A stretch of DNA of 64,000 bases, taken from Mobula hypostoma. Taxonomy: Eukaryota. A program made the position numbers and the translations under genes. The DNA lies in contig NC_086097.1 in assembly GCF_963921235.1 (NCBI RefSeq), positions 90,150,001 to 90,214,000 on the forward strand. The letters are read 5' to 3'. This document shows positions 11,731 to 63,269 of the stretch, piece by piece; positions within the stretch are counted from its first letter, which is position 1; every line of letters begins with the position of its first letter. The notes beneath the pieces were generated by a model. It made no database searches and was not told the DNA's origin. It saw only the letters and a list, made by a program, of their open reading frames with translations.

Positions 11731-13082
11731 ACATAGAAACATAGAAACATAGAAAATAGGTGCAGCAGTAGGCCATTTGGCCCTTCGAGCCTGCACCGCC
11801 ATTCAGTATGATCATGGCTGATCATCCAACTCAGAACCCTGTACCAGCCTTCCCTCCATACCCCTTGATCCCTTTAGCCACAAGGGCCATATCTAACTCC
11901 CTCTTAAATATAGCCAATGAACTGGCCTCAACTGTTTCCTGTGGCAGAAAATTCCACAGATTCACCACTCTCTGTGTGAAGAAGTTTTTCCTAATCTCGG
12001 TCTTAAAAGGTTTCCCCTTTATCCTCAAACTGTGACCCCTCGTTCTGGACTTCTCCAACATCGGGAACAATCTTCCTGCATCTAGCCTGTCCAACCACTT
12101 TAGGATTTTATACGTTTCAATAAGATCTCCCCTCAGTCTTCTAAATTCCACAGAGTATAAGCCTAGTTGATCCAGTCTTTCATCATATGAAAGTCCTGCC
12201 ATCCCAGGAATCAATCTGGTGAACCTTCTTTGTACTCCCTCTATGGCAAGGATGTCTTTCCTCAGATTAGGGGACCAAAACTGCACACAATACTCCAGGT
12301 GTGGTCTCACCAAGGCCTTGCACAACTGCAGTAGTACCTCCCTGCTCCTGTACTCGAATCCTCTTGCTATGAATGCCAGCATACCATTCGCCCTTTTCAC
12401 CGCCTGCTGTACCTGCATGCCCACTTTCAATGACTGGTGTATAATGACACCCAGTTCTCGTTGCACCTCCCCTTTTCCTAATCAGCCACCATTCAGATAA
12501 TAATCTGTTTTCCTGTTCTTGCCACCAAAGTGGATAACCACACATTTATCCACATTAAATTGCATCTGCCATGAATTTGCCCACTCACCCAACCTATCCA
12601 AGTCACCCTGCATCCTCTTAGCATCCTCCTCACAGCTAACACTGTCGCCCAGCTTCGTGTCATCCGCAAACTTGGAGATGCTGCATTTAATTCCCTCATC
12701 TAAGTCATTAATATATATTGTAAACAACTGGGGTTCCAGCACTGAGCCTTGCGGTACCCCACTAGTCACTGCCTGCCATTCTGAAAAGGTCCCGTCTATT
12801 CCCACTCTTTGCTTCCTGTCTGCCAACCAATTCTCTATCCACATCAATACCTTACCCCCAATACCATGTGCTTTAAGTTTGCACACTAATGGCCTGTGTG
12901 GGACCTTGTCAAAAGCCTTTTGAAAATCCAAACATACCACATCCACCGGTTCCCCCCTATCCACTCTACTAGTTACATCCTCAAACAATTCTATGAGATT
13001 CGTCAGACATGACTTTCCTTTCACAAATCCATGCTGACTTTGTCCAATGATTTCACCGCCTTCCAAATGTGCTGTTATCACA
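11731..13082 (-). mobile_element. CR1 LINE, 3' half (5' half at 17815-18430)
   Basis: ORFs 12482-13123 (DFQKAFDKV, GVPQGSVL, FADD) and 11831-12466; (CATAGAAA)n tail at 11732-11755. Confidence 0.95.
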
Positions 13083-13455
13083 AACAACAGGAATTCTGCA
13101 GATGCTGGAAATTCAAGCAACACACATCAAAGTTGCTGGTGAACGCAGCAGGCCAGGCAGCATCTCTAGGAAGAGGTACAGTCGATGTTTCAGGTCGAGA
13201 CCCTTCGTCAGGACTAACTGAAGGAAGAGTTAGTAAGAGATTTGAAAGTGGGAGGGGGAGGGGGAGATCCAAAATGATAGGAGAAGACAGGAGGGGGAGG
13301 GATGGAGCCAAGAGGTGGACAGGTGATTGGCAAAGGGGGTATGAGAGGATCATGGGACAGAAGGTCCGGGGAGAAAGACAAGGGGGGGGAACTCAGAGGA
13401 TGGGCAAGGGGTATAGTCAGAGGGACAGAGGGAGAAAAAGGAGAGTGAAAGAAAG
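13083..13455 (-). mobile_element. PLE 3' terminal region; left arm of the inverted insertion 13083-17814
   Basis: Reverse complement of the PLE 3' end seen at 42500-42936; preceded by TSD GTGCTGTTATCACA (13069-13082). Confidence 0.9.
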
Positions 13456-13903
13456 GAGAGAATCCAGGATGGTTTGTTGCCTCCCGGGTGCCAGGGTCAA
13501 GGATGTCTCTGATCGATTGCATGACATTCTGAAGTGGGAGGGTGACCAGCCAGATGTCGTGGTGCACATTGGTACCAATGACAGAGCAAGGAAGAGTGAA
13601 GAGGTCCTGGACAGTGAGTATAGAGAACTTGGTAGGAAGTTGAAAAGCAGGACCTCAAGGGTGGTAATCTCAGGATTGCTACCTGTGCTAGGTGCCAGTG
13701 AGGGTAGGAATAGGATGCTCTGGAGGAGGAACAAGTGGCTGAGGAGCTGGTGTAGGGGGCAGGGTTTCAGATTTCAGGATCATTGGGACCTCTTCTGGGG
13801 CAGGTGGGACCTGTACAAGAGAGACGGGTTACACTTGAACCACAGGGGGACCAATATCCTTTCAGGGAGGTTTGTTAGTGTTATTGGGGAGGCTTTAAAC
13901 TAG
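13456..13903 (+). pseudogene. CR1 ORF1 C-terminal SGNH esterase domain, 5'-truncated
   Basis: CCLPGARVKDV...DVVVHIGTND...VVISGLLP...DGLHLN, the SGNH/GDSL esterase motifs of CR1 ORF1. Confidence 0.85.
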
Positions 13904-13905
13904 AT

Positions 13906-16833
13906 TTGCAGGGGGATGGGAACCAGAGTGCCAGAGCTGACAGTGTGGCTGGGGTGAAAATAAATGATGTTGAAAGTTTAAGCAAATCCGCTGATAGAAA
14001 GGTTGTGAGTGGTGGTAAAAATCTTCTGAGGTTTATATATTTCAATGCTAGGAGTATTGCGGGGAAGGCGGATGAGTTGAGGGCGTGGATTGACACGTGG
14101 AATTATGATGTTGTAGCAATTAGTGAAACTTGGCTACAGGAGGGGCAGGACTGGCAGCTTAATTTACCAGGGTTCCGATGTTTCAGATGTGATCGAGGCA
14201 GAGGAATGAAAGGTGGGGGAGTAGCATTGCTTGTTAGGGAAAATATTACAGCAGTGCTCAGGCAGGACAGATTAGAGGGCTTGTCTACTGAGTCCTTATG
14301 GGTGGAGCTGAGAAACAGGAAAGGTATGGCCACATTAGTGGGATTGTAGTACAGACCACCCAATAGTCAACGAGACTTGGAAGAGCAAATATGCAGAGAG
14401 ATAGCAGGCAACTGCAGGAAACATAAAGTTGTGGTGGTAGGGGATTTTAATTTTCCATACATTGATTGGGACTCCCATACTGTTAGGGGTCTAGATGGTT
14501 TAGAGTTTGTAAAATGTGTTCAGGAAAGTTTTCTAAATCAATATATAGAGGGACCAACTAGAGGGGATGCAATATTGGATCTCCTGTTAGGTAACAAATT
14601 AGGGCAAGTGACAGAAGCCTGTGTAGGGGAGCACTTTGGTTCCAGTGATCATAACACCATTAGTTTCAATTTGATCATGGACAAGGATAGATCTGGTCCT
14701 AGGGTTGAGGTTCTGAACTGGAAGAAGGCCAAATTTGAAGAAATGAGAAAGGATCTAAAAAGCGTGGATTGGGACAGGTTGTTCTCTGGCAAAGATCTGA
14801 TTGGTAGGTGGGAAGCCTTCAAAGGGGAAATTTTGAGAGTGCAGAGTTTGTATGTTCCTGTCAGGATTAAAGGCAAATTGAATAGCAATAAGGAACCTTG
14901 GTTCTCAAGGGATATTGCAACTCTGATAAAGAAGAAGAGGGAGTTGTATGAAATGTATAGGAAACAGGGGATAAATCAGGTGCTTGAAGAGTATAAGAAG
15001 TGCAAGAAAATACTTAAGAAAGAAATCAGGAGGGCTAAAAGAAGACATGAGGTTGCCTTGGCAGTCAAAGCGAAAGATAATCCAAAGAGCTTTTACAAGT
15101 ATATTAAGAGCAAAAGGATTGTAAGGGATAAAATTGGTCCTCTTGAAGATCACAGTGGTCGGCTTTGTGCGGAACCAAAGGAAATGGGGGAGATCTTAAA
15201 TAGGTTTTTTGCGTCTGTATTTACTAAGGAAGCTGGCATGAAATCTATGGAATTGAGGGAGTCAAGTAGTGAGACCATGGAAACTGTACAGATTGAAAAG
15301 GAGGAGGTGCTTGCTGTCTTGAGGAAAATTAAAGTGGATAAATCCCCGGGACCTGACAGAGTGTTCCCTCGGACCTTGAAGGAGACTAGTGTTGAAATTG
15401 CGGGGGCCCTGGCAGAAATATTTAAAATGTCGCTGTCTACGGGTGAAGTGCCGGAGGATTGGAGAGTGGCTCATGTTGTTCCGTTGTTTAAAAAAGGATC
15501 GAAAAGTAATCCGGGAAATTATAGGCCAGTGAGTTTAACGTCAGTAGTAGGTAAGTTATTGGAGGGAGTACTAAGAGACAGAATCTACAAGCATTTGGAT
15601 AGACAGGGGCTTATTAGGGAGAGTCAACATGACTTTGTGCGTGGTAGGTCATGTTTGACCAATCTGTTGGAGTTTTTCGAGGAGGTTACCAGGAAAGTGG
15701 ATGAAGGGAAGGCAGTGGATATTGTCTACATGGACTTCAGTAAGGCCTTTGACAAGGTCCCGCATGGGAGGTTAGTTAGGAAAATTCAGTCGCTAGGTAT
15801 ACATGGAGAGGTGGTAAATTGGATTAGACATTGGCTCAATGGAAGAAGCCAGAGAGTGGTGGTAGAGAATTGCTTCTCTGAGTGGAGGCCTGTGACTAGT
15901 GGTGTGCCACAGGGATCAGTGCTGGGTCCATTGTTATTTGTCATCTATATCAATGATCTGGATGATAATGTGGTAAATTGGATCAGCAAGTTTACTGATG
16001 ATACAAAGATTGGAGGTGTAGTAGACAGTGAGGAAGGTTTTCAGCGCCTGCAGAGGGACTTGGACCAGCTGGAAAAATGGGCTGAAAAATGGCAGATGGA
16101 GTTTAATACTGACAAGTGTGAGGTATTGCACGTTGGAAGGACAAACCAACGTAGAACATACAGGGTTAATGGTAAGGCACTGAGGAGTGCAGTGGAACAA
16201 AGGGATCTGGGAATACAGATACAAAATTCCCTAAAAGTGGCGTCACAGGTAGATAGGGTCGTAAAGAGAGCTTTTGGTACATTGGCCTTTATTAATCGAA
16301 GTATTGAGTATAAGAGCTGGAATGTTATGATGAGGTTGTATAAGGCATTGGTGAGGCCGAATCTGGAGTATTGTGTTCAGTTTTGGTCACCAAATTACAG
16401 GAAGGATATAAATAAGGTTGAAAGAGTGCAGAGAAGGTTTACAAGAATGTTGCCGGGACTTGAGAAACTCAGTTACAGAGAAAGGTTGAATAGTTTAGGA
16501 CTTTATTCCCTGGAGCGTAGAAGAATGAGGGGAGATTTGATAGAGGTATATAAAATTGTGATGGGTATAGATAGAGTGAATGCAAGCAGGCTTTTTCCAC
16601 TGAGCCAAGGGGAGAAAAAAACCAGAGGACATGGGTTAAGGGTGAGGGGGGAAAAGTTTAAAGGGAACATTAGTGGGGGCTTCTTCACACAGAGAGTGGT
16701 GGGAGTATGGAATGAGCTGCCAGACGAGGTGGTAAATGCGGGTTCTTTTTTAACATTTAAGAATAAATTGGACAGATACATGGATGGGAGGTGTATGGAG
16801 GGATATGGTCCGTGTGCAGGTCAGTGGGACTAG
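13906..16833 (+). pseudogene. CR1 ORF2 (APE endonuclease plus RT), near-intact with one in-frame stop
   Basis: YFNARS, AISETW, GDFN, SSDHN, KSPGPD, YRPVSLTS, DFSKAFDKV, GVPQGSVLGP, FTDD; ORFs 13906-14349 and 14377-16833 are in one frame separated by TAG at 14347-14349. Confidence 0.95.
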
Positions 16834-16915
16834 GCAGAAAATGGTTCGGCACAGCCAAGAAGGGCCAAAAGGCCTGTTTCTGTGCTGTAGTTTCTGTGGT
16901 TCTATGGTTCTATGG

Positions 16916-17110
16916 TGTGTATAAAAATAAATAATGGATGGGGTACGAGGGGGAGGTGGAGCATTAGCGGAAGTTAGAGAAGTCGATGTTCATGCCATCA
17001 GGTTGGAGGCTACCCAAATGGAATATAAGGTGTTGTTCCTCCAACCTGAGTGTGGCTTCATCTTTACAGTAGAGGAGGCCATGGATAGATACAGTAGAGG
17101 AGGCCGTGGA
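16916..17110 (-). mobile_element. Remainder of the PLE left arm (end of GIY-YIG ORF)
   Basis: Reverse complement of ...DEATLRLEEQHLIFHLGSLQPDGMNIDFSNFR; continues 13083-13455. Confidence 0.85.
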
Positions 17111-17814
17111 CACTTCACCTGTGAGTCGGCTGGGGTGATATACTGCGTCCGGTGCTCCCGATGTGGCCTTTTATATATTGGCGAGACCCGACGCAGACTG
17201 GGAGATCGTTTTGATGAACACCTACGCTCTGTCCACCAGAGAAAGCAGGATCTCCCGGTGGCCACACATTTTAATTCCATATCCCATTCCCATTCTGACA
17301 TGTCTATCCACGGCCTCCTCTACTGTAAAGATGAAGCCACACTCAGGTTGGAGGAACAACACCTTATATTCTGTCTGGGTAGCCTCCAACCTGATGGCAT
17401 GAACATCGACTTCTCTAACTTCCGCTAATGCCCCACCCCTCCGTACCCCATCCGTTATTTATTTTCATACATACATTCTTTCTTTCACTCTCCTTTTTCT
17501 CCCTCTGTCCCTCTGACTATACCTCTTGCCCATCCTCTGGGTTCCCCCCCCCCTTGTCTTTCTCCCCGGACCTCCTGTCCCATGATCCTCTCATATCCCC
17601 TTTGCCAATCACCTGACCACCTCTTGGCTCCATCCCTCCCCCTCCTGTCTTCTCCTATCATTTTGGATCTCCCCCTCCCCCTCCCACTTTCAAATCTCTT
17701 ACTAACTCTTCCTTCAGTTAGTCCTGACGAAGGGTCTCGACCTGAAACATCGACTATACCTCTTCCTAGAGATGCTGCCTGGCCTGCTGCGTTCACCAGC
17801 AACTTTGATGTGTG
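17111..17814 (+). mobile_element. PLE right arm (GIY-YIG domain and 3' region)
   Basis: HFTCESAGVIYCVRCSRCGLLYIGETRRRLGDRF; followed by TSD GTGCTGTTATCACA (17815-17828). Confidence 0.9.
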
Positions 17815-18430
17815 GTGCTGTTATCACATCTTTGATAACTGACTCTAGCATTTTCCCCACCACCGATGTCAGGCTAACCGGTCTATAATTCCTCGGTTTC
17901 TCTCTCCCTCCTTTTTTAAAAAGTGAGGTTACATTAGCCACCCTCCAATCCTCAGGAACTAGTCCAGAATCTAAAGAGTTTTGAAAAATTATCACTAATG
18001 CATCCACTATTTCTTGGGCTACTTCCTTAAGCCCTCTGGGATGCAGACCATCTGGCCCTGGGGATTTATCTGCCTTTAATCCCTTCAATTTACCTAACAC
18101 CACTTCCCTACTAACATGTATTTCCCTCAGTTCCTCCATCTCACTGGACCCTCTGTCCCCTACTATTTCTGGAAGATTATTTATGTCCTCCTTAGTGAAG
18201 ACAGAACCAAAGTAGTTATTCAATTGGTCTGCCATGTCCTTGCTCCCCATAATTAATTCACCTGTTTCTGTCTGTAGGGGCCTACATTTGTCTTAACCAA
18301 TCTTTTTCTTTTCACATATCTATAAAAGCTTTTACAGTCAGTTTTTATGTTCCCTGCCAGTTTTTTCTCATAATCTTTTTTCCCCTTCCTAATTAAGCCC
18401 TTCGTACTCCTCTGCTGGACTCTGAATTTC
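17815..18430 (-). mobile_element. CR1 LINE 5' half of the copy at 11731-13082
   Basis: KSPGPDGLHPR...NYRPVSLTSVVGKMLESVIKDVITA joins ITAHLEGGEIIGQSQHGF across the insertion. Confidence 0.95.
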
Positions 18431-18698: not shown

Positions 18699-18884
18699 TT
18701 ATTTATTCTGGTATGTACAGATTAAAGGTATGTATTTATTTATTCCAGTATGTACAGTTTATATGTATTTATTTATTCTGGTATGTACAGATTATACGCA
18801 TGTATTTATTTATTCCGGTACGTACGGTTTATACGCATGTATTTATTTATTCCGGTACGTACAGTTTATACGCATGTATTTATT
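18699..18884. repeat. Minisatellite, 33-37 bp unit, about 5 copies
   Basis: Unit TATTTATTTATTCCGGTACGTACAGTTTATACGCATG with variants; abuts the (TTTA)n tail of a SINE remnant. Confidence 0.85.
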
Positions 18885-19209
18885 GAGATACAGTGCGGAG
18901 AAGACCCTTCCAGCCCTTCAGGCCCAGGAGACCAATTGAACTATCGACCGCTACATCTTTGAACGGTGGGAGGAAACTGGAGCACCAGACGTACAAACTC
19001 CTTACGGACAGTGGCTGCTTTGTATTTGGTTTTATTTCACACTTTTTTGCATTGTAAAATTTCAGAAGGTTGTACAAAACTTTAGTGAGAGCTTAAACAG
19101 TGCTGTTTTTGATGAATCTGCGACATTTACTTCACACTTTTCAATAAAAACAGAACAGAAAGCATTCACGTATTAACATGACCTATCTCGAAACACTTGT
19201 GTTCTCTCT

Positions 19210-21446
19210 AGAGGGCAACACACATGAACTGCTGGAGAAACTCAGCAGGTCAGGCAGCATCCATGGAAAAGAGTGAACAGTCAATGTTTCAGGCCGAGGC
19301 CCTTCATCAGGACTGGAAAGGAAGGGGAGAAGTCAGAATAAGAAGGTGAGGGGAGGGGAGGAAGAAGTACAAGGTGGCAGGTGATAGGTGAAACTGGGAG
19401 TGTGGGGGGGTGAAGTAAAGAGCTGGAAAGTTGATTGGTGAAAGAGATAAAGGGCTGGAGAAGGGGAATCTGATAGAGAGGACAGAAGGCCATGGAAGAA
19501 GGGGAAGGTGGAGGAGAATGAAAAGCCTGATCCTGATAACAGATACAGCAGAGAAAAAAGAATTCAGAGAAGAGGATGGCATTTTTACAAGTGACAGTGT
19601 GGGAAGAGCTATAGTCCAGATAGCTGTGAGAGTCAGTGGGTTTATAAAAGATATCAGTAGATAGACTGTCTCCAGGGGTGGAGACAGAGAGATCAAGAAA
19701 TGAGAGAGAGGTGTCAGAAGTGGACCAAGTAAATTTGAGGGTAGGGTGGAAGTTGGAGGCAAAGTTGATAAAATTGATGAGCTCAGAATGGGTGCAGGAA
19801 GCAACACTAATTCAGTTGTCAATGTAGCATAGGAAGAGTTGGGAGCAATGCTGGTGTAGGCTTAAAACATGGACTGTTCCACATAGCTGATGAAAAGACA
19901 GGTATAGCTGGGACTCATGTGATGTGCCCATAATTTCATCTTTAGTTTGAAGGAAGTGGGAGGAGCTGAAGGAGAAATTATTGATGGTGAAGACCAGTTC
20001 CACCAGATGGAGGAGAGTGGTGGTATAGGGGAACTGGTTGGGTTTGTTGCCCAGAAGAGAGCAGAGAGCTTTATGGGCCTCCTGATAGGGGATGGAGGTG
20101 TTAAGGGACTGGAAGTCCATGGTGAAAATAATTCAGTGGGGCAGGAACAAGCAGAAACTATGGGTCTACCTGGACAGTCAGGTGTATGGATCTTGGGTAG
20201 CAGGTAGAAATGGGAGGTGTGGTGTAAGGGAACTATGAGGTCGGTGGCCGTGGATGGGAGATCCCAGAGTTGATGAGGTCAGTGACGTTGTGGGGGACGA
20301 TGGCCTGGTTCTCCTTAGTAGGACCCTGTTCGAGGGGTTAGTTAGAGGAGGAGGTATCTGACAGTTGTCATTGGTCCTCAGCAAGGTAGAGATCAATCCA
20401 CCAGCCTACTACAGCACTCTTCTTATCTGCAGGTTTGATGGTGAGGTTGGGATTAGTGCAGACAGAGTGGAGAGCAGTGCATTCAGAAGAAGTGAGGTTA
20501 GAATTGGACAGAGAAGTGTTGATGTCCCGTCGGCAGCTAGCGATGAAAAGGTCCAGATCAGGCAGAAGACCAGGGCGGAATGTCCAGGAAGAGGAAGAGG
20601 GTTGATGACAGGAGAAGGGGTCATCGGTGCGGGGTGGAGGGTCCTTACCAAAGAAGTAGACACAGAAATGGAGATGATGGAAGAAGAGCTCGGTGTCACG
20701 GCAGGTGCGGAACTCATTGAGGTGCGGGCACCAGGGGACAATGATGAGGCCCTTGCTGAGGACAGAACATTCTGCCTCAGAGAGAGGCAGGTTGGAGGGA
20801 ATTGTGAAGATCTGGCACAGATGACAGCTGGGATGATAGGACTGGTAGTGTCTCAGGAGAGAGGAGAGTTGGGGTGTTCAGGGAAGGTAGGGAGGGAGGG
20901 AGGAAGTTGAAGGCTCCGTGGACCCAAGAGTTAACAGTGGGGCTTGAGAGAAACAAGGTTGCAGAGTGGTGGTGGGGGAAGGAGAGACTGGGGTTCCAGC
21001 GGCAGCACGCAAAGTCTCAGCCTGGACGTGCTGTTGGTCAAATTCCAGGCAGGAGTCGGAGTTTGAGGTTGTGTAATTAGCAGTTTCAAGGTGTCCGCGT
21101 TTGTTGAAATCGGCACCGGCAGTGGTGGAATCCCAGTTCTGAATCCGCTCAGGATCATTGGAACCGGTGTTGGTGATGTTGGAAATGTCCAGCACTGTGG
21201 GGCCAGGGACAGATTCAAAGAGGTTTGTAACCTGGGGGCGTGTGATAGTATCAATGTCCAAGTGGCGGCAGCAGGGATGCTGGTCTGGGGCATCCAGGGC
21301 CGCCAGTGTTAAAGGCGGTGGGTTCTGTGGTCTGCATACGGGTGTCGGCTGCTCACTCTTTTCCATAGATGCTACCGACCTGCTGAGTTCTTCCGGGCTT
21401 TTGTGTGTGTTGCTTGGATTTCCAGCATCCGTAGATTTTCCCCTGT
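19210..21446 (-). mobile_element. Older PLE: minus-strand 3' region, degenerate RT and N-terminal part, plus a short inverted 3' end at about 21350-21446
   Basis: Minus frames TSIPYQE...NNFSFSSSHFLQTK, LFLCYIDN; GIY-YIG region deleted; TSD TTG(T/C)GTTCTCTCT at 19197-19209 and 21447-21459. Confidence 0.8.
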
Positions 21447-22699
21447 TTGCGTTCTCTCTGTCTTTTATAAATTATGCTATTCATCATACCATAAAATTAA
21501 ATGTAGGATATTTGTGCAGGGATTGCTGACTTTGCACCATGTAACTGAGGTAAATGCAATAACATGTGCTGTGAGGAAATGGATTATGATCAAATGTCAT
21601 GTGATTGAGCATTGCAAAAGCAGTGTCACGTGACTGAGTGACATCATTGAGTGCCTTCACTCACTGTTTTGTACATTGTACAAAAGGCTGCCCTCCTCCT
21701 TGTTAAAAATGAAACCATGATTATAAGCTTCCTCAGACCTAAAGGAAAAATGAGTGAACAAGAGACATGAAAAGACTAGTTGGTCCTATCCCATGTATCA
21801 TGGCTGGAGTGCAAAGAACAATCTAGAAAATGTTCGGGTCCATACAATTAATAAATACAATATAAAATTCTCTTACTGATTGAGATTATGATTCAAAGTT
21901 AAACAGAATTAATTTAAACAATTTAAATGTCCTTACATGGATTTAGATGATCAAAGTTCAAAGTATATTTAATTATTATCAAAGTTATGTATACATTATA
22001 CAACCTTGAGATTCACCTCCTTACAGGCAGCCATGAAACAAAAAAACTCAAAGGAACCCATAAAAAAAGAAAAAAAAGAACCCAAAGCGCAGGGAGAAAG
22101 AAGAACAAATCACGCAAACAATAAACACAAGCAAACAGTGCTTTCCACTGAAGTCCATGGAGAGTTCAGCACCAGATCCTTAACTCTGTGCAGAATGGGG
22201 CAGTGAGTGAACTGGCCTGTCCTTTGCCTCAGGCCCCAACACCCTGACCCTTTCAATTTGGCCTGGTGTTTAAGTCGTTGTCCAAACATTGGGTTCGGTC
22301 ACTTCAGTACACTCTGGGGCCTGGATCTTACTGCCTTGCTTCGGCCCGTGCCTGACCTTTCCAATTTGGCTCAGCACTTAAATCGATCAAACCTCGGGTC
22401 TTCCTCGGTCTTGTGAAAAGGCCTCACCTCGCCTCGATCCTGCCACATCACATTGCCTCCAGGTCCAAAAGAGGTTACAGACTATCGCTTACCATGATCG
22501 ATTGTCAGAAAAAGTCTGATTAACTAAGTATTTGGTTGTTTTCCTTGTTTCTTCGGCCACCAGCTAGAAGCTGCGTGGTTCACCAGCACCATCTAAAACT
22601 GGAAGTTAATAAGCAATGAGCCATTTTGACTGCTACTTGATCAGTTTTACCACTTCATTTGGTTTTAACCGACTGATGACTGGATGATCCTTTTGCTTA

Positions 22700-25336: not shown

Positions 25337-25337
<1 letters not shown>

Positions 25338-28825: not shown

Positions 28826-28830
28826 TAGAG

Positions 28831-28910: not shown

Positions 28911-29064
28911 CTTTAGCGAAATCTACATTTTGGTAAACCACTATCATCCAGCCTTTCACATAGGTGTGATAAATCTAAGGTAAGGAACTATGAAGCAGTT
29001 CTGTTAACTTGTGGATGCACGCTTTAGCACGCTCTGTGCAATGTTACATTTGTCTTCAATATCA

Positions 29065-47251: not shown

Positions 47252-47264
47252 GTACTGGTTATTG

Positions 47265-50150: not shown

Positions 50151-50156
50151 CCAGGT

Positions 50157-50430: not shown

Positions 50431-53047
50431 AATGACACTAGGTTGGCATGAATTCATCGGTCTGGACGACCTATATACATTGGTTTGATCAAAACAATAA
50501 TGTCATCCTCCATCCTGAAGACTGTCTAGAAAGATACAGAAACAAGAACAGTGGCAGCAACTAAGTTGGAAGTTAAATTCACCTAATACAAATGATCTAG
50601 ATTGACGTGGAGCTACAATGTATATCACCCACACTTTTAGTGCACCCTAATTGACCCATCTCTGCCACCAATCCACTCTCACATACCCTGCTGCTTGACT
50701 TGCTTTACATAGGGTGCACCAGAACCTCACGTATTATAGTTATATCTGATTTTGGAAAAACAGAAGAACTAATGACTTGTACGAAGAAATGGAAGGGTTG
50801 GTTAGTGAACTGGCATAAAACTTGAAGGTTGGAGGTGCTGTGGATAGTGTAGAATGCTTTCGTAGGTTACAACAGGACATGGGCAAGATGCAGAGCTGGG
50901 CAGAGAAGTGGCAGATGGAGTTCAGTCCAGAAAAGTGTGAAAGATTAATCTTGAAGGTGGAGTACAAGGTGAATGGCAGGATTCTTAGCAGCACAGAGGA
51001 TCTTGGGGCTGAAGTGCATAAATCCCTCAAAGTGACTAAACAATTTGTTAGCATGGTTAAGAAGGCATATGGTGTGTTCACCTTCATTATTCACGGCACT
51101 GAGTTTAAGGGCTGCCAGGTAATATTGCAACTCTATAAAACTCTGGTTAGATCACAGTAATGAGATACAGATCTCATTGTAAAGTTCAGGGGAGATGTCA
51201 GAGGTATTTTACACAGTGGTAGAGGTTGATACAATAGGGACATTTCAGAAATGATCATTTATTTTATTTATTTAGTGATAAAGCATGGAGTAAGCACTTC
51301 TGGCCCTCCAAGCGGCATCGCTCCAGCTCCCCGATATAACACTATCTTAATCACAGGACAATTTACAATGACCAGTCAGCCCACCTGGTATGCCTTTGGA
51401 CCGTGGGAGGACGTACAGAATCCTTTCACAGCATGGCAGAATTGCACTTCAAACTCCGAGGCCCCGAGCAGTAATTGTGTCACACTAACTACTATGCTAC
51501 CATAGCACCCGACAACAAATCTATCTATGGAAAATGAAGGATTATGGGCAATATACGAGGGAAGGGCTAGGTTGATCCTGGAATAGGTTAGCTTGCACCG
51601 TGAGTCAAAGGGCCTTACTGTGCCATACTGTTCTATGTAAATCACTCCTCTTAGTTGTCTGGCTGAAACCTGACAATGTGGAGCTATGTAACTGATAGAG
51701 TTACGCTGAATCACGGCCAATAGCACTTCAACCCCTGCTCCAATACAGGGAAACAATAGACCATTTGACAGCCAGCTGAATGAGCAACATTTCAGCTGTG
51801 TAAACATAGCTCCAAGCCCAAGGGGCAGAGGGCGGACTTCACACTCCCTTGGGAATGGATGCCTCCTCACAGGATCTGGGAAGTGCAGCAATCAGATTAA
51901 CCCCCAAAGGAACAGAAATTTATTCTTAAACTTTAAGACAGGACCAATTTATTAAGTTACTTGCAATAGAGTGATTCCTCTACAGGTCTCCCGTTGAAAT
52001 GGATTCAGAATGACTTAAAACTTACTTCTTTTGTTCAATGCCATTTTTCTTAAAATGTTTATGAAAAGTGTGATTTGGAAGTGAAGAACTGAAAAAAGAC
52101 ATTTTTTCTTTCCCTCATACATGGGAGGTGACCGTGACAGGAAGGTTGGCATTTATTTCCAATCACAACTGCACTCATGGAGGCAATGGTGAACAGCAAC
52201 CATACTGCTGGTGGGACAATGTTGAGGGAGAGTCACACTGTTGGAAGGGCAATACTGAGGGATTGCTGCAATGCCAGAGCAAGTGCCACAACATCAGAGG
52301 GACAGCTGTACGGAGGGAGCACCAGGCTATCTGAGGGCCAGTGCAGAGAGGTGCTGATTGGTAAAGAGTTCCAGCATTTTGACCAGATGCTGATGAAGGA
52401 TTGGCATTTCCAAGTTTCGAGTGTGCACAGCTTCAAAAGGAATGTGTAAGTGATGACGTTTCCATGTTACGTTTTGCCCTCCAGAAGGTAAAAGTTAAGG
52501 GTTTGGGAGGCAGTGTTGAGAAGATGAGATGTCACAGTGCACACTCTAAATGGCACATACCGCATTTGGGGTAAACTGGAGGAGAGGCTGATACATGGTT
52601 TTGATTTCTACAACTGCACTTGCTGAATTGTCCTGAATGGTTGCAAAAATTCTGAGTATCGTTAAGGCTGCAATTATTAAGTAAGAGATTCAACATTCAA
52701 GATTGTTCTATGTCATTTCCTGCACACAAGAAGAATGGAATAATTATTACTCCGAATCCGGTGCAGCAAAAAAAACCCCACAAAAGATAAAGAACACAAA
52801 GATAATAAAAAAAACACAATAAATATAATCACAACTGCTCTCAAGGTAGCTTATATACATACTGTAGATTGATCGTAGTCCATAAAAAGGAGACCATTGT
52901 ATCATATTTCTGACACATAGATGGCAATGGTCTTCAGAGAAGCAGGAAGTGAGTCACTTGCCACAAAATTCCCAGCCTCTGAGCTGCTGGTAGAGTCAAT
53001 ATATGTAAAGTTAAATCACCTAAAAGGACTGCGGAAGGGTTTGTCAA

Positions 53048-53315
53048 CACACATCAAAGTTGCTGGTGAACGCAGCAGGCCAGGCAGCATCTCTGGGAAG
53101 AGGTACAATCGACGTTTCGGGCCGAGACCCTTCATCAGGACGAACTGAAAGAAGAGCTAGTAAGAGAGCTAACTGAAAGCAGATTAGTCCTGACGAAGGG
53201 TCTCATCCCAAAACGTCGACTGTACCTCTTCCCAGAGATGCTCCCTGGCCTGCTGCGTTCACCAGCAACTTTGATGTGTGTTGCTTCAATTTCCAGCATC
53301 TGCAGAGTTCCTCGT
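53048..53315. mobile_element. Palindromic mini-PLE
   Basis: Inverted PLE 3' ends with filler at about 53166-53193; TSD GGAAGGGTTTGTCAA at 53033-53047 and 53316-53330. Confidence 0.9.
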
Positions 53316-53734
53316 GGAAGGGTTTGTCAAATGTGTTCAGGGAAGTTTCCTTAGTCAATATGCAGAGGTCTGAAAGAATGCAATATTGGATCTCCTCTTT
53401 GGGAATAAGGCAAGGGCAGGTGACAGACGTGCATGTAGGAGAACATTCTGGATCCAGTGATCATAATTCCATTTGTTTTAAGTTAATTATGAAGGATTGG
53501 ACTAGTCCTCAGCTTGAGATTCTAAAATGTAGAAAGGTCAATTTAGATGGCATCAGAAGGGATCTGGCAGGTGTAGATTAGGAAAGGCTGTTTCCCAGCT
53601 TGGTAAGTGGAGGGGTCTTTAAAAGTGAAATATTAAGTTTACAAAATCTGTATGTTCCTGTCAGAATAAAAGGCAGACTGGCACACTTGTGGAACCTTGA
53701 TTATCAAGGGATATTGAGGCCCAGGTAAAGAAAG

Positions 53735-56420
53735 GCTTTATTGGTAAGAAATGATATTAAGTCATTAGAAAGAGGTGATATAGGATCAGAAGGTGCAGAA
53801 TCTTTATGGGTTGAGCTAAGAAATTGCAGGGGTAAAAGGACCCTGATGGCAGTTATTTAGAGGCCTCCAAACAGCTGCAGAGATGTGGACTACAAATTAC
53901 AACAGGAAATAGAAAAGGCTTGTCAGAAGGGCAGTGTTATGATAATTGAGGGGGATTTTAACATGCGAGTGGATTGGGAAAATCAGGTGGGCACTGGATC
54001 TCAAGAGAGAGAATTTGTAGAATGTCTGCGAGATAGCTTTTTAGAACAGCTTGTTGTTGAGCCCACTAGGGGATCGGCTGTACTTGATTGGGTATTGTGT
54101 AATGAACCAGAGGTGATTAGAGAGATTGAGGTGAAGGAACCCTTAGGAGGCAGTGATCATAACATGATTGAATTCACTGTGAAATTTGAAAAAGAGAAGC
54201 CGAAATCTGATGTGTCGGTATTTCAGTGGAATAAAGGAAATTACAGTGGCATGAGAGAGGAACTGGCCAAAGTTGACTGGAAAGGGACACTGGCGGGAAA
54301 GACAGCAGAGCAGCAGTGGCTGGAGTTTATGCAAGAAGTGAGGAAGGCGCAAGACAGGTATATTCCAAAAATGACGAAATTTTCGAATGGAAAAAGGATG
54401 CAACCGTGGTTGACAAGAGAAGTCAAAGCCAAAGTTAAAGCAAAGGAGAGGGCATACAAGGAAGCAAAAATTAGTGGGAAGACAGAGGATTGGGAAGTTT
54501 TTAAAACCTTACAAAAGGAAACTAAGAGGTCATTAAGAGGGAAAAGATTAACTATGAAAGGAAGTGAGCAAATAATATCAAAGAGGATACTAAAAGTTTT
54601 TTCAAGTATATAAAGAGTAAAAGACAGGTGACAGTAGATATAGGACTGATAGAAAATGATGCTGGAGAAATTGGAATGGGAGATAAGGAGATGGCGGAGG
54701 AACTGAATGAGTATTTTGCATTAGTCTTCACTGAGGAAGACATCAGCAGTATACCAGATACTCAAGGGTGGCAGGGAAGAGAAGTGTGCGCCGTCACAAT
54801 TATGACACAGAAAGTACTCAGAAAGCTGAATAGTCTAAAGGTAGATAAATCTCCCGGACCAGATGGAATGCACCCTTGTGTTCTGAAGGAAGTAGCTGTG
54901 GAGATTGCGGAGGAATTAGCGATGATCCTTCAAAAGGCGATAGATTCTGGCATGGTTCCGGAGGACTGGAAGATTGCAAATGTCACTCTGCTATTTAAGA
55001 AGGGGGCAAGGAAGCAAAAAGGAAATTATAGACCTGTTAGCTTGACATCGGTGTTTGGGAAGTTGTTGGAGTCCATTGTCAAGGATGAGGTTATAGAGTA
55101 CCTGGAGGCATATGACAAGATAGGCAGAACTCAGCATGGATTCCTTAAAGGAAAATCCTGCCTGACAAACCTATTACAATTTTTTGAGGAAATTACCAGT
55201 AGGCTAGACAAGGGAGATGCAGTAGTTGTTGTATATTTGGATTTTCAGAAGGCCTTTGACAAGGTGCCACACATGAGGCTACTTAACAAGATAAGAGCCC
55301 ATGGAATTACGGGAAAGTTACATACGTGGATAGAGCATTGGCTGATTGGCAGGAAACAGAGAGTGGGAATAAAGGGATCCCATTCTGGTTGGCTGCCGGT
55401 TACCAGTGGTGTTCCACAGGGGTCCGTGTTGGGGCCGTTTCTTCTTACATTGTACATCAATGATTTGAATTATGGAATAGATGGCTTTGTGGCTAAGTTT
55501 GCTGATGATACGAAAATAGGTGGAGAGGCCAGTAGTGCTGAGGAAATGGAGAGTCTGCAGAGAGACTTGGATAGATTGGAAGAATGGGCAAAGAAGTGGC
55601 AAATGAAATACAATATTGGAAAGTGTATGGTTATGCACTTTGGCAGAAGTAATAAACGGGCAGACTATTATTCAAATGAGGAAAGAATTCAAAGTTCAGA
55701 GATGCAACGGGACTTGGGAGTCCTTGTACAGGATACCCTTAAGGTTAACCTCCAGGTTGAGTCAGTAGTGAAGAAGGCGAATGCAATGTTGGCATTCATT
55801 TCTAGAGGAATAGAGTATAGGAGCAGGGATGTGATGTTGAGGCTCTATAAGGCGCTGGTGAGACCTCACTTGGAGTACTGTGGGCGGTTTTGGTCTCCTT
55901 ATTTAAGAAAGGATGTGCTGACGTTGGAGAGGGTACAGAGAAGATTCACTAGAATGATTCCAGGAATGAGAGGGTTAACATATGAGGAACATTTGTCCGC
56001 TCTTGGACTGTATTCCTTGGAGTTTAGAAGAATGAGGGGATACCTCATAGAAACATTTCAAATGTTGAAAGGCATGGACAGAGTGGATGTGGCAAAGTTG
56101 TTTCCCATGATGGGGGAGTCTAGTACGAGAGGGCATGACTTAAGGATTGAAGGGTGCCCATTCAGAACAGAAATGCGAAGACATTTTTTTAGTCAGAGGG
56201 TGGTGAATCTGTGGAATTTGTTGCCACGGGCAGCAGTGGAGGCCAAGTCATTGGGTGTATTTAAGGCAGAGATTGATAGGTATCTGAGTAGCCAGGGCAT
56301 CAAAGGTTATGGTGGGAAGGCGGGGGAGTGGGACTAAATGGGAGAATGGATCAGCTCATGATAAAATGGCCGAGCAGACTCGATGGGCCGAATGACCGAC
56401 TTCTGTTTCTTTGTCTTATG
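53735..56420 (+). mobile_element. Younger CR1 LINE, 5'-truncated in the endonuclease; one stop and a frameshift
   Basis: ORFs 53885-54613 (GDFN, SDHN) and 54628-56337 (DFQKAFDKV, GVPQGSVLGP, FADD); possible 5-bp TSD GAAAG at 53730-53734 and 56421-56425. Confidence 0.92.
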
Positions 56421-59091
56421 GAAAGAGAAGTTATATACTGTATCAGGTGTAGACAGTTAGGATCGAATAAGTGATTGAGGAGTATAAGAATTGGAAGAGA
56501 ACACCTAAGAGATAAAGCAGGAGGGCCATAGGGTCATGAGGTTTCTCTGGAAGACAAGGCAAAAGAGAATCTCAAGGGGTTGTCTAGCTATATTAAAAGG
56601 TTAGCAAGGGACAAAATGAGTCTTCTTGAAAATCAGCATGGTTACCTATGCATGGAGCCAAAAGAGATGGTGATAACTTTAATGAATTTTTTGCATCTCT
56701 ATTTACTTGGGAGACACACAGAGACCATAGCAGTGAGGTAAAAGAGTAGAGCGGTCATGGACCATATCCAGATTACAGACGAGGTGATCTGACTGTCTTG
56801 AGGCGAATTAGGGTGGATAAATCCCCAACAGCAAACAAGGTGTCCCCTCAGACCTAATGGGAGACTAGTGCAGAAATTGGAGGGGTCCAGGCAAAAACAG
56901 TTAAAACATCCTGAGTTGAAGTGCTGGAGGACTGGAGAACAGCCAATGGTAAATTACTGGAAGGGTTTCTAAGGACCAGGCTTTTGGATAGGCAGGGCCT
57001 AATTAGGGATAGTTGACATGTTTTGTGCGTGGTAAGTCATGTCTAACCAATCTTACAGAGTTTTTTAGAGAGGTTACCAAGAAGGTTAATGAAGGAAAGG
57101 TGGTGAACATTGTCTATGTGGCCTTTAGCAAGCCTTTTGACAATGACAACATCCCACACGGGAAGCTGGCACAGAAGTTTAAATTGCTTGCCATTCACAA
57201 TGAAGCAGTCAATTGGATTCAATGTTGGCTTAGTCGGGGAAGCCAGAGAGTGGTAGTAAATGGTTGTCTCTCTGACTAAAGACACCTGTGACTGCTAGTG
57301 TGCTGCATCAGTCAGTGCAGGCTTCATTATTGTGTGATGATGTGTTTCTAGAAGGAAATGTTGTAAACAGGATTAGCAAATTTCAGGATGACACCAAGAT
57401 TGGTAAGCAGGGGATAGCACGGAAGGCTATCAAAACTTGCAGCATGATCTCGACCAACTTGGAAAATAGACTGAATAATGGCAGATGGAATTTAATGCAA
57501 AAAAGTGTGTTGCACTTTGAAAGGATAAACAAGGGTAAAAATTAAACTGTGAATGATGGTGCTTTGATGTGTGCTGTAGAACAAAGGGACCTGGGAACAC
57601 AGATCAATAATTCCGTGGAAGTGAAATCAAATGTAGGTAGTGTCATAAAGAGAGCTTTTGGTGCACTGGCCTTCATAAATCCCTGCACTGAACACAGGAT
57701 CTAGTATATTATGTTGTACACTACCTCACTTTTTTTTTCTTTTTTCACTCTCTTTTCGCACTATTTACTTAATTTTTCTATATAAGTGTTGATCAAGATT
57801 GAAATTGACAAGAACAAGAGCAGGAGAGCAGGTGTTCGGCCTGTGTTTGACTAGGCCCTCTCCCTCTCCCTCGCTGCTGCCAAAGGAAGGTGCAGAAGTC
57901 TTGGGTCTTGGGAAGGTTTCATTGGTGCAGCTTGTGGATTGGACTCATTCTTAGAGATTTCTGCGGTTCATATTACATGTTTTTCTGTTTTCTTATTACT
58001 CTTGTTGTTATTCTGCATGATTCTGATCTGGACGCGTTGACGCAGCCAAATTGAACTGAACTGGACTAAACTGAACACTCCTAGACCATTTCAAGGACCC
58101 TGCAGGTCTGTGACTCTGCAACCTAATGTGTTATTCACTCGTCTTTTGCTGATGGCACAATTTGTTCTTTTTTTCGCACGTTGGGTGTTTTCTTTGAACA
58201 GATTCCATGGTGTTTCTTTGTTTGGTAGCTGCCCGCAGGAAGACAAATGCATACATATTTGGATAATAAATATACTTTGAATCTTTGTATATTTCTTATT
58301 ATAATGTAAAGTTTATGTATTTATTTATTTTAGAGATATAGCATGGAATAGGCTATTCCGGCCCTTCAAGCCACACTCTCTACCAATCCTGATTTAACCC
58401 TAGCCTAATCATGGGACAACTTAAAATAACCGATTAACAACTAACCAGGACTATGGGAGAAAACTGGAGCACCCAGAAAAAACCTACGCAGTCCACGTGG
58501 AGGACGTAAAAACCCCTTACTGTGGACACTGGATTGAGCTCTGACATAGTGTCCCACTAACCCCTATGTACCCTGGTGCCCGCATATTGCAATGTACCGC
58601 TGCCACAAAACTACAAATTTCACAACATACACTACACCAGCAATATTGTATAAGACATTGGTGAGGTCACATTTGGATTACTGTTTGCAGCTGTGGTCAC
58701 TTAACTACCGGAAAGATGTTAATAACCTTGAAAAAGTGCAGAGAAGATTTACAAGGATGTTGCCAGGGCTCGAGGTCTTGAATTATCAGGAAAGATTAAA
58801 TAGATTAGGACTTTATTCCTTGAAGTGCAAGAAAAGGAGGGGAGATCATATAGAGGTATAGAAAATTATGAGGATTACAGATACGGTGAATACATACAGG
58901 CTTCTTCCCCTCAGGTTGTTTGAGACTAAAACTAGAGGTCGCTGGTTTAGAGAAAAAGGTGAAATATCTAAGGGCCTCTGAGGGAAAACTTCATCATCAG
59001 ATGGTGGTGCAAGTGTGGAACGAACTGCCAGTGGAAATGAGAAATGTAGGTTCAGTTGTAATATCTAAGAAAAGTACAAGGATGAGAGGGG

Positions 59092-61244
59092 TACAGTCGA
59101 CGTTTCAGGCCAAGACCCTTCGTCAGGACTAACTGAAGGAAGAGTGAGTACGAGATTTGAAAGTTGGAGGGGGAGATCCAAAATGATGGGAGAAGACAAG
59201 AGGGGGAGGGATGGAGCCAAGAGCTGGACAGGTGATTGGCAAAACGGATATGAGAGGATCATGGGACAGGAGGTCCAGGAAGAAAGACAAGGTGGGGGGG
59301 CACCCAGAGGATGGGCAAGGGGTATATTCAGAGGGACAGAGAAAGAAAAAGGAGAGTGAGAGAAAGAATGTCTGTATAAAAATAAATAACAGATGGGGTA
59401 CGAGGGGGAGGTGGGGCATTAGCGGAAGTTAGAGAAGTCGGTGTTCATGCCATCAGGTTGGAGGCTACCCAGACGGAATATAAGGTGTTGTTCCTCCAAC
59501 TTGAGTGTGGCTTCATCTTTACAGTAGAGGAGACCGTGGATAGACATGTCAGAATGGGAATGGGATGTGGAATTAAAATGTGTGGCCACTGGGAGATCCT
59601 GCTTTCTCTGGCGGACAGAGCGTAGGTGTTCAGCAAAGCGGTCTCCCAGTCTGCGTCAGGTCTCGCCAATATATAAAAGGCCACATCGGGAGCACCGGAC
59701 ACAGTATATCACCCCAGCCGACTCATAGGTGAAGTGTCGCCTCACCTGGAAGGACTGTTTGGGGCCCTGAATGGTGGTAAGGGAGGAAATGTAAGGGCAT
59801 GTGTAGCACTTGTTCCGCTTACGTGGATAAGTGCCAGGAGGGAGATCAGTGGGGAGGGATGGGGGGGACGAATGGACAAGGGAGTTGTGTAGGGAGCGAT
59901 CCCTGTGGAAAGCAGAGGGGGGGGAGGGAAAGATGTGCTTAGTGGTGGGATCCCGTTGGAGGTGGCGGAAGTTACGGAGAATAATATGTTGGACCCGGAG
60001 GCTGGTGGGGTGGTAGGTGAGGACCAGGGGAACCCTATTCTTAGTGGGGTGGCGGGAGGATGGAGTGAGAGCAGATGTACATGAAATGGGGGAGATGCGT
60101 TTAAGAGCAGAGTTGATAGTGGAGGAAGGGAAGCCCCTTTCTTTAAAAAAGGAGGACATCTCCCTCGTCCTAAAATGAAAAGCCTCATCCTGAGAGCAGA
60201 TGCGGCGGAGATGGAGGAATTGCGAGAAAGGGATGGCGTTTTTGCAAGAGACAGGGTGAAAAGAGGAATTGTCCAGATAGCTGTGAGAGTCAGTAGGCTT
60301 ATAGTAGACATCAGTGGATAAGCTGTCTCCAGAGACAGAGACAGAAAGATCTAGAAAGGGGAGGGAGGTGTCGGAAATGGACCAGGTAAACTTGAGGGCA
60401 GGGTGGAAGTTGGAGGCAAAGTTAATAAAGTCAACGAGCTCAGCATGTGTGCAGGAAGCAGCGCCAATGCAGTCGTCGATGTAGCGAAGGAAAAGTAGCG
60501 GACAGATACCAGAATAGGCACGGAACATAGATTGTTCCACAAAGCCAACAAAAAGGCAGGCATAGCTAGGACCCATACGGGTGCCCATAGCTACACCTTT
60601 AGTTTGGAGGAAGTGGGAGGAGCCAAAGGAGAAATTATTAAGAGTAGGGACTAATTCCGCTAGACGGAGCAGAGTGGTGGTAGAGGGGAACTGATTAGGT
60701 CTGGAATCCAAAAAGAACCGGAGAGCTTTGAGACCTTCCTAGTGGGGGATGGAAGCATAAAGGGACTGGACATCCATGGTGAAAATAAAGCGGTGGGGGC
60801 CAGGGAACTTAAAATCATCGAAAAGTTTAAAAGCGTGAGAAGTGTCACGAATATAGGTAGGAAGGGATTGAACAAGGGGGGATAAAACCGTGTCGAGGTA
60901 TGCAGAAACGAGTTCGGTGGGGCAGGAGCAAGCTGAGACAATAGGTCGGCCAGGACAGGGAGGTTTGTGGATCTTGGGTAGGAGGTAGAAACGGGAAGTG
61001 CAAGGTGTGGGAACTATAAGGTTGGTAGCAGTGGATGGGAGATCCCCTGAGCGGATAAAGTCGGTGATGGTGTGGGAGACAATGGCCTGGTTCTCCTTAG
61101 TGGGGTCACGATCGAGGGTTAAATAAGAGGAGGTATCCGCGAGTTGTCGCTGTGCCTCAGCAAGGTAGAGGTCAGTACGCCAGACTACAACAGCACCCCC
61201 CTTATCGGCGGGTTTAATAATAAGGTTAGGATTAGTGCGGAGGA
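59092..61244 (-). mobile_element. Neptune-type PLE, left arm (RT, GIY-YIG, 3' region)
   Basis: ORF 59656-60711 with AMGTRMGP, LRYIDD, GLLYIGET; upstream RT motifs to about 61240; TSD AGGATGAGAGGGG at 59079-59091. Confidence 0.92.
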
Positions 61245-61259
61245 GGTTTAGTAATAAGG

Positions 61260-62847
61260 ACCCGTATGGGTCCTAGCTATGCCTGCCTTTTTGTTGGCTT
61301 TGTGGAACAATCTATGTTCCGTGCCTCTTCTGGTATCTGTCCCCCACTTTTCCTTCGCTACATCGACGACTGCATTGGCGCTGCTTCCTGCACGCATGCA
61401 GAGCTCGTTGACTTTATTAACTTTGCCTCCAACTTTCACCCTGCCCTCAAGTTTACCTGGTCCACTTCTGACACCTTCCTCCCCCTTCTAGATCTTTCTG
61501 TCTCTGTCTCTGGAGACAGCTTATCCACTGATGTCTACTATAAGCCTACTGACTCTCACAGCTATCTGGACTATTCCTCTTCTCACCTTGTCTCTTGCAA
61601 AAACGCCATCCCCTTCTCGCAATTCCTCCGTCTCCGCTGCATCTGCTCTCAGGATGAGGCTTTCCATTTTAGGACGAGGGCGATGTCCTCCTTTTTTAAA
61701 GAAAGGGGCTTCCCTTCCTCCACTATCAACTCTGCTCTTAAACGCATCTCCCCCATTTCACGCACATCTGCTCTCACTCCATCCTCCCGCCACCCCACTA
61801 GGAATAGGGTTCCCCTGGTCCTCACTTACCACCCCACCAGCCTCCGGGTCCAACATATTATTCTCCGTAACTTGCGCCACCTCCAACGGGATCCCACCAC
61901 TAAGCACATCTTTCCCTCCCCCCCCCCGCTTTCCGCAGGGATCGCTCCCTACGCGACTCCCTTGTCCATTCGTCCCCCCCATCCCTCCCCACTGATCTCC
62001 CTCCTGGCACTTATCCGTGTAAGCAGAACAAGTGCTACACATGCCCTTACACTTCCTCCCTTACCACCATTCAGGGCCCCAAACAGTCCTTCCAGGTGAG
62101 GCGACACTTCACCTGTGAGTCGGCTGGGGTGATACACTGCGTCCGGTGCTCCCGATGTGGCCTTTTATATATTGGCGAGACCCGACGCAGACTGGGAGAC
62201 CGCTTTGCTGAACATCTACGCTCTGTCCGCCAGAGAAAGCAGGATCTCCCAGTGGCCACACATTTTAATTCCACATCCCATTCCCATTCTGACATGTCTA
62301 TCCATGGCCCCTTCTACTGTAAAGATGAATCCACACTCAGGTTGGAGGAGCAACACCTTATATTCCGTCTGGGTAGCCTCCAACCTGATGGCAGGAACAT
62401 CGACTTCTCTAACTTCTGCTAAGGCCCCACCTCCTCCTCATACCCCATCTGTTATTTATTTTTATACAGACATTCTTTCTCTCACTCTCCCTCCGGCCCT
62501 CTGACTATACCCCTTGCCCATCCTCTGGGTTTTTCCCCCCCTCCCCCTTTTCCTTCTCCCTGGGCCTCCTGTCCCATGATCCTCATATATCCCCTTTGCC
62601 AATCAACTGTCCAGCTCCTGGCTCCATCCCTCCCCCTCCTGTCTTCTCTTATCATTTTGGATCTCCCCCTCCCCCTCCCACTTTCAAATCTCTTACTAGC
62701 TCTTCTTTCAGTTAGTCCTGACGAGGGGTCTCGGCCCGAAATGTCGACTGTACCTCTTCTTAGAGATGCTGCCTGGCCTGCTGCGTTCACCAGCAACTTT
62801 GATGTGTGTTGTTTGAATTTCCAGCATCTGCAGAATTCCTGTTGTTT
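61260..62847 (+). mobile_element. Neptune-type PLE, right arm
   Basis: ORFs 61266-62099 (LRYIDD) and 62096-62422 (GIY-YIG); complete 3' end; TSD AGGATGAGAGGGG at 62848-62860. Confidence 0.92.
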
Positions 62848-63269
62848 AGGATGAGAGGGGAATGGAGGGCTGTGATCCGGGTGCAGGTAGATGGTACCAG
62901 AGAGAATGCCTAGTTGGCATGGACTAGATGGGCCAAAAGGTCTGTTTCTGTGCTGAGGTACTTTATGACTCTATCCTGGTCATACATGTCCTTGGGTATA
63001 TGACAAGAAACTCTATTTTTAAATTGACTTTATCTTTCATTATTCCCTTCAAGTGTAGATTAATCCTGTTCTACGGAATGTTTTTTCAATTATTTCTCTA
63101 CCAATGGAGTTAAGAGTCATTGGCCTCTAACTGCCCTTCTTGAATAAAGGCATCATCTTTGCTGTCCTGAAGTCAGCTGGCACACTTTTGTGGCTGGAGA
63201 ACATATGAAAAACTTAGTCAGGGATTTTTGTCCCCTGCATCCAGTATTAAATTTACTATTGTGACAGGT

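Follow-up and report, generated by a model that had tools for sequence, protein, structure and literature searches.

Inverted Penelope-like insertions in Mobula hypostoma pair one tailed with one tail-less arm, which points to priming from both ends of a staggered cut

Described systems

Penelope-like elements (PLEs) of the endonuclease-positive (EN+) type have a canonical insertion architecture, described by Arkhipova et al. (2013; PMC3846280) and Craig et al. (2021; PMC8557442): head-to-head arms with a tail on one arm, a single target-site duplication (TSD), partial tandems, and a hammerhead-like motif. These features, the last of them as a candidate, are shared by the PLE family studied here in a 64,000-nt stretch of Mobula hypostoma DNA (assembly GCF_963921235.1, contig NC_086097.1, positions 90,150,001 to 90,214,000), hereafter the window, which is repeat-rich animal DNA from an assembly of 3.48 Gb. 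The architecture itself is, hence, known and not new. In the available text of Arkhipova et al., the inverted pseudo-long terminal repeat (pLTR) is 37 bp shorter than the full one, the 31-bp tail is optional, TSDs are 8–10 bp long, and self-priming is proposed. Craig et al., in the portions available, draw the inverted-copy layout as typical, ascribe the tail to resolution by the endonuclease, and name the undefined origin of PLE tandem and inverted structures as a next task. Compared with these accounts, as far as their available text goes, TSDs are 13–15 bp long here as against 8–10 bp in their rotifer examples; the tail, optional or often one-sided and uncounted there, occurs here strictly once per inverted pair; and the self-priming with endonuclease resolution invoked there is disfavoured by the present data.

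The Poseidon element of Anolis carolinensis was studied in vitro by Frangieh et al. (2024; PMC11167929). According to the available part of that paper, both strands are nicked and extended, two internal start sites of reverse transcription (RT) bound the tail, and a dimer is predicted; both-strand extension, two internal starts, and a tail made of the sequence between them appear to be shared by the present family. A term search of that text returned neither TSDs nor inverted insertions, and the steps after initiation are given there as unvalidated. The two elements belong to different clades. A CX2-5CxxC linker between reverse transcriptase and endonuclease marks the Neptune and Nematis clades and is absent in Penelope and Poseidon, as stated in the consulted portion of PMC8557442; the present element carries a CX4CxxC linker and is therefore probably Neptune- or Nematis-like, not Poseidon. 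In addition, the available Poseidon data feature no microhomology and a preference for ATT, whereas the present insertions feature an excess of 1–3 nt of microhomology and a symmetric AAnnnA flank.

In the present family, every young inverted pair sampled joins one tailed to one tail-less arm, and it is quite probable that both ends of a cut prime RT. L1 elements form a related product by twin priming, in which a second nick primes internally and leaves an inverted segment within one TSD, the inverted and direct segments being non-overlapping. The PLE insertions share the inverted segment within one TSD but differ in having two fixed starts close to the end of the repeat and separated by about 36 nt, overlapping arms, no poly(A), a narrow range of TSD lengths, and a GIY-YIG rather than an apurinic/apyrimidinic (AP) endonuclease. 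A first-pass annotation of the window, made from its letters only, had set the insertions apart from L1 twin priming by this overlap, rightly so: the arms overlap by at least 15 nt in 57 of 62 pairs. It had also stated that inverted pLTRs occur in PLEs, which is correct but understates what is published, namely the one-sided tail within a TSD (PMC3846280; PMC8557442) and extension from two start sites (PMC11167929), all as given in the accessible text. Its mechanism is mostly right and largely anticipated. A literature search returned no pairing count and no application of twin priming to PLEs, although supplements and subscription papers lay outside the search and may hold such. What is added here is the strict pairing, the symmetric target motif, hand-over jumps, and discordant haplotypes.

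Inverted insertions and their single tail

Arm positions are numbered backward from the usual tailed end (-1) of the PLE. The six inverted insertions annotated in the window were re-found inside single TSDs at the expected coordinates (Table 1), with lengths of 14, 13, 13, 13, 15, and 13 bp and one mismatch in the second only; an exact 13-mer between two given boundaries arises by chance with a probability of about 1e-5. Insertion 2 has the weakest TSD, with an exact core of 9 bp and first 7 nt that also resemble the element's own continuation. All six combine, as annotated, an antisense with a sense arm of the PLE 3' end, the antisense one lying on the left. The arms overlap in five, the exception being insertion 3, whose tailed arm consists of the tail alone. 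One arm is tailed and the other, which stops 30–95 nt short, is tail-less in all six, so that the annotated pairing of a full with a short end stands; the "full terminus", however, is not the end of the RNA (see below). The set of six was incomplete, as it lacked a seventh, older tailed and tail-less case and a simple copy.

The pair-type figures come from two samples rather than from a whole-genome tally. Sample A comprises 1.66 Mb: the 64-kb window, 80 random 10-kb loci, and 80 loci centred on a motif that lies upstream of both start sites. Sample B comprises 40 further loci picked for long young copies, which brings both together to about 2 Mb. Sampled loci elsewhere in the genome carry L numbers, with oriented coordinates. 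Young denotes an identity of at least 85%; the 63 young head-to-head rows become 62 after dropping a duplicate reading of L131, a locus that was also excluded from the haplotype tests.

All 62 young inverted pairs of sample A consist of one tailed and one tail-less arm, as do the 12 inverted insertions within the 40 long copies—74 of 74 in total. Simple copies are tailed in 33 cases and tail-less in 32; independence therefore predicts that half of the pairs are mixed, and the probability of all being mixed is about 5e-23. A lack of enrichment of this pairing, named in the first-pass annotation as a refutation of its reading, was thus not seen. The observation is confirmed as real and non-random. 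Neighbouring young ends at most 3 kb apart face outward in 60 cases, inward in 4, and the same way in 9. Among older pairs (below 85%), 25 of 27 are mixed and two are tail-less on both sides: L059 holds one copy nested inside another and bounded by a TSD of its own, and L039 is degraded and unexplained. A hidden tiny arm was found in only 1 of 37 simple insertions searched for one.

It is highly improbable, and largely refuted, that the arms are independent insertions of different times, products of later rearrangement, or an assembly artefact. PLEs do enter older PLE ends, as seen in the simple copy of the window, which landed in an older PLE 3' end, and in the nested L059; and a long inverted repeat that lost one arm could look like the jumps described below. 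Against this stand the pairing without exception and the single TSD that encloses both arms in 57 of 63 young rows. The orthologous sites point the same way: across site 5, a contig of a related species (organism E) has about 20 nt between the flanks compared with 302 in the window, which fits one TSD copy and zero arms, and contigs of a further organism (B) run across the left-hand junction of insertion 4 and that of insertion 5. Insertion of the arms at different times, which the annotation had named as counting against itself, was thus not seen at site 5. At insertion 3, contig matches from organisms B and E start exactly at the right TSD copy, and the contigs have 109–117 more letters of unlisted placement, which would be compatible with an empty site.

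The element and its internal termini

The natural full-length copies at L200 and L220 feature a 1043-codon stop-to-stop frame with a reverse transcriptase, the CX4CxxC linker, and, at the C terminus, a GIY-YIG domain. RVT_1 (E=3e-5) and GIY-YIG (E=1e-3) both match this frame below the Pfam cut-off; the GIY-YIG match of the window copy has E=4e-4. In L220, as in the open reading frames (ORFs) of the window, the linker comes before the GIY-YIG domain. As judged from this frame, the partial tandems, and the inverted copies with tail and TSD, the element is classed as an EN+ PLE; the linker motif is the basis of the label Neptune-like.

One unit measures 3513 nt. A partial tandem, with a truncated unit before a full one, occurs in 9 of 40 long copies, and in these the tail continues directly into the 5' part of the ORF. 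Tailed ends spread from -8 to +9 and often bear the first letters of this continuation; both start sites are therefore internal. The "terminus" is internal to the template and is not an RNA end. The annotated idea that both cut ends prime RT, one start being long and the other short, is supported; its "one terminally" finds no support, because both starts lie inside a tandem read-through template. Two similar GU-rich words that end in UGUU(U)GC form the start sites at the 3' end of the element (42890–42937), and read antisense both look, by eye, like the target half-site motif. A second cluster of tail-less ends lies at -47/-48 (9 of 62). In two unrelated insertions, L201 (at about 1719) and L214 (at about 1720), the upstream partial unit starts at the same point (-1653/-1652), which hints that the RNA has a discrete 5' end or that both derive from a common source tandem of about 5.2 kb.

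This is a large and young family: a 30-nt core motif has 65,069 exact matches in the genome and a 26-nt tail motif 27,962, and a 351-nt stretch is identical in 40 of 40 scored matches, hence in at least 40 such copies. Its size makes PLE insertion rules countable—one tail per pair, 13–15 bp spacing, symmetric flank motif, hand-over jumps. Such rules predict results in the existing in vitro system and render the open mechanism directly testable.

Target site and microhomology

An exact TSD of 13–15 bp is present in 40 of 47 inverted insertions; no fixed nick spacing tighter than this TSD spread was found. At both nicks, A is preferred at -8, -7, and -3 outside the TSD, alike for tailed and tail-less ends, and the same pattern flanks simple insertions on both sides (n=24). 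AAnnnA, a motif picked after viewing part of the data, occurs at 39 of 178 half-sites compared with a background of 2.7%. Since inverted and simple insertions share this flank, one symmetric double nick likely starts each insertion. Microhomology between primer and template was set against a simulation in which arm bases may be taken up into the TSD by chance; it amounts to 1.50 nt at tail-less ends (n=40 of 47) versus 0.71 nt in the simulation (0 of 5000 runs); the excess at tailed ends is weak (1.03 versus 0.68 nt; p=0.016; n=37 of 47).

Probable use of two cDNAs per inverted insertion

Of the 55 pairs with a direct junction, 25 have a tail-less arm whose 5' reach exceeds that of the tailed arm by more than 20 nt, 14 show the reverse, and 16 differ by at most 20 nt; in the long pairs, the tail-less arm has this greater 5' reach in 8 of 12. 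Each arm can thus carry sequence absent from its partner, which argues for two RNA-templated complementary DNAs (cDNAs), since fold-back alone fails to produce it. A single priming followed by fold-back self-priming, with endonuclease resolution leaving a one-sided tail, as proposed in the available text of PMC3846280 and PMC8557442, is for this reason improbable. It also fails to yield non-overlapping tail-only arms or discordant haplotypes, and it sits poorly with junctions that are blunt or near-blunt in 33 of 55 pairs and with microhomology that exceeds the simulation at either outer end. Palindromic junctions, at which the inner ends are equal as fold-back would have it, do occur in a few pairs (L115 at -637/-637, L159, L163, L133); the antisense resemblance of the start sites to the target half-site would allow the endonuclease to cut the element there; and an antisense template, suggested in the consulted part of PMC3846280, is compatible with the sequence data.

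Overlaps reach about 3 kb (L230), and long arms pair with long arms (odds ratio 18, p=7e-5). The tailed arm of L175 consists of 29 nt copied, 1.2 kb skipped, and a restart 30 nt from the stop of its partner. Landings near the partner's 5' end are also seen in L123 (68 nt) and L075 (9–22 nt), so that 3 of 5 within-arm jumps land 9–68 nt from that end (P about 7e-4). Tail-only arms that halt at the upstream start site occur in insertion 3, L175, L161, L135, and L222. Such arms and these landings speak for a single RNA. The 5' end of the antisense arm of L175 (6921–7346) consists of about 2.2 tandem copies of a piece of about 100 nt, which look as if the template had slipped repeatedly ahead of the join.

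Of 110 inner ends, 46 lie between -100 and -139, in the hammerhead region. Cleavage by the hammerhead was considered as the origin of arm 5' ends and is not claimed, as the inner ends are scattered with no sharp pile near the predicted cut at -102. The hammerhead-like core itself, at -134 to -98, is a candidate found by pattern match of core and helices. Rfam gave no hammerhead match in the window between 42600 and 53400, and the minimum-free-energy fold lacks a hammerhead. The Rfam matches obtained are microRNA hairpins far below the thresholds, due to the palindrome of the inverted arms. Short inverted insertions are long hairpins with weak scores against microRNA models, as seen at 47054–47193; thousands of such copies could give double-stranded RNA if transcribed.

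One template or two

Within an insertion, the arms mismatch at 39 of 461 comparisons of non-CpG polymorphic sites (8.5%), whereas the figure for different insertions is 37%. The two arms show no difference in 43 of 63 insertions. In L214, whose two tandem units differ at diagnostic sites, the tailed arm agrees at 5 of 6 such sites with the downstream unit, in which the other arm starts; derivation of the tailed arm from the upstream tandem junction is rejected for this locus. We incline, by a small measure, to single events of a Neptune-like PLE in which both ends of a staggered cut prime at two internal start sites, usually on one RNA.

A number of results weigh against this. At least two shared-variant site differences separate the arms in 10 of 63 insertions, and the discordance of 8.5% exceeds the background of 1.5%. 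Insertion 6 of the window and L059 carry the same linked four-site switch, and the very young L195 has four such sites; of 16 long overlaps, only 5 have the partner as the nearest arm. Discordant arms need two templates—two RNAs or chimeric tandem units—or later gene conversion; by a rough estimate, about one-fifth of the pairs used two templates or were converted later. Matching haplotypes could, in turn, also reflect one active source locus per cell. Arm lengths lack a significant correlation in longer pairs (rho 0.29, p=0.23, n=19), inner ends at most 10 nt apart are not enriched (10 versus 6.9 expected, p=0.11), and in 2 of 5 jumps (L210, L223) the landing point is 367 and 686 nt away from the end of the partner. 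Finally, PMC11167929, in its available text, reports no difference in start site between the strands and no test of pairing.

An asymmetric dimer that holds two template copies, as two RNAs or two tandem units, and whose protomers are fixed to the downstream and the upstream start, respectively, would need no strand displacement. This arrangement is possible but doubtful. The long overlaps come naturally with it, as do discordant arms, which still obey the pairing (insertion 6 of the window, L059, L195, L209, L115); and chimeric tandems exist, since the two units of one insertion differ in haplotype in 2 of 9 tandems (L214, 6 diagnostic sites; L220, 3). It leaves the asymmetry unexplained, though both target half-sites are alike for either end type, and predicts neither the jumps to the partner's end nor the tail-only arms that halt at the upstream start.

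Proposed mechanism

For priming at two starts on one RNA, the following course can be proposed. Two endonuclease sites would nick both strands 13–15 bp apart at an AAnnnA-flanked, quasi-symmetric target and leave two 3' overhangs, the endonuclease pair presumably being a dimer as modelled for the lizard element. One overhang would prime upstream (about -34 to -48) and the other downstream (about -8 to +9), aided by 1–3 nt of microhomology, and the roughly 36 nt between the two start sites would form the tail. Upon reaching the first hybrid, the downstream reverse transcriptase may halt, which would give a tail-only arm; displace the hybrid, which would give overlapping arms; or hop to the point where the first one stopped, which would give a jump. 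The 3' ends of the two cDNAs, many of them stalled around the hammerhead, would then be joined head to head and repaired, and extension of a single end would yield a simple tailed or tail-less copy with the same TSD. Of this course, the layout, the TSD, the pairing, the target motif, and the internal termini are observed, while the dimer, the order of events, the displacement, and the joining are inferred. The complete scheme—a symmetric double nick (AAnnnA, 13–15 bp, TnnnTT), two reverse transcriptases on one RNA at two fixed starts, the trailing one displacing or handing over to the leading one, and an inverted product with exactly one tail—stands at about an even chance. If true, it would be a distinct, two-headed form of target-primed RT that accounts at once for the narrow TSD, the tail on one side, and the inverted pLTR.

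Other features of the window

The bounds of insertion 1 (Table 1) agree with the annotation, which had not separated out the 3.46 kb of a nested long interspersed element (LINE) that splits the tailed arm. This LINE, which we take to be CR1-like, would have entered the arm later.

Table 1. Positions of PLE insertions and other features in the window
Feature	Position	Strand	Extent in element or content	TSD (left / right)
Insertion 1, tailed arm	13083–17089	-	-2 to about -552; interrupted by nested LINE	14 bp; 13069–13082 / 17815–17828
Nested LINE, 5'-truncated, presumably CR1-like	13456–16914 (3.46 kb)	+	RVT_1 + Exo_endo_phos_2 (RT/AP endonuclease); within insertion 1 tailed arm	
Insertion 1, tail-less arm	17111–17814	+	about -744 to -40	
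Insertion 2, tail-less arm	19210–21343	-	end -36; older subfamily, 75–80% to young copy, internal deletion	19197–19209 / 21447–21459 (1 mismatch)
Insertion 2, tailed arm	21344–21446	+	end about -11 (old copy, uncertain)	
Seventh inverted insertion, older	24112–24207		antisense tail-less arm (24113–24194), then about 12 nt of sense tail	10 bp; 24102–24111 / 24208–24217
Simple non-inverted tailed copy	41164–42936	+	C-terminal half of RT + GIY-YIG frame	13 bp
Hammerhead-like core (candidate)	42804–42840 (approximate)	+	helix I, CUGANGA, helix II, GAAA, GUC; pattern match, 3' repeat	
Insertion 3, tail-only arm	44258–44285	-	-3 to about -30	44245–44257 / 44779–44791
Insertion 3, tail-less arm	44279–44778	+	about -532 to -36	
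Insertion 4, tail-less arm	47025–47125	-	-35 to -134	47012–47024 / 47252–47264
Insertion 4, tailed arm	47126–47251	+	-130 to about -6	
Insertion 5, tail-less arm	53048–53167	-	-40 to -159	53033–53047 / 53316–53330
Insertion 5, tailed arm	53184–53315	+	-136 to about -8; preceded by 16-nt junction	
Insertion 6, tail-less arm	59092–61243	-	-96 to about -2250	59079–59091 / 62848–62860
Insertion 6, tailed arm	61244–62847	+	about -1610 to -1; haplotype unlike partner arm's	
CR1-like LINE copy	6126–6671	-		
CR1-like LINE copy	11831–13126	-		
CR1-like LINE copy	14350–16833	+		
CR1-like LINE copy	54568–56337	+		
Piece of another LINE family	28994–29965	+	RVT_1 + PF09004 match	
Older-subfamily PLE copies, simple or decayed	10455–11300; 25985–26631; 35341–35816; 40630–41159			
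Stop-free frame	13013–13903	+	antisense PLE arm into nested LINE ORF1 piece	
Tandem array	18699–18884		37-nt unit, about 5 copies	

Older CR1-like LINEs were the landing sites of insertions 1 and 6, and a younger one then entered insertion 1. The stop-free frame that spans this nesting junction matches a GDSL-like esterase (E=3e-12) and is a chance fusion.

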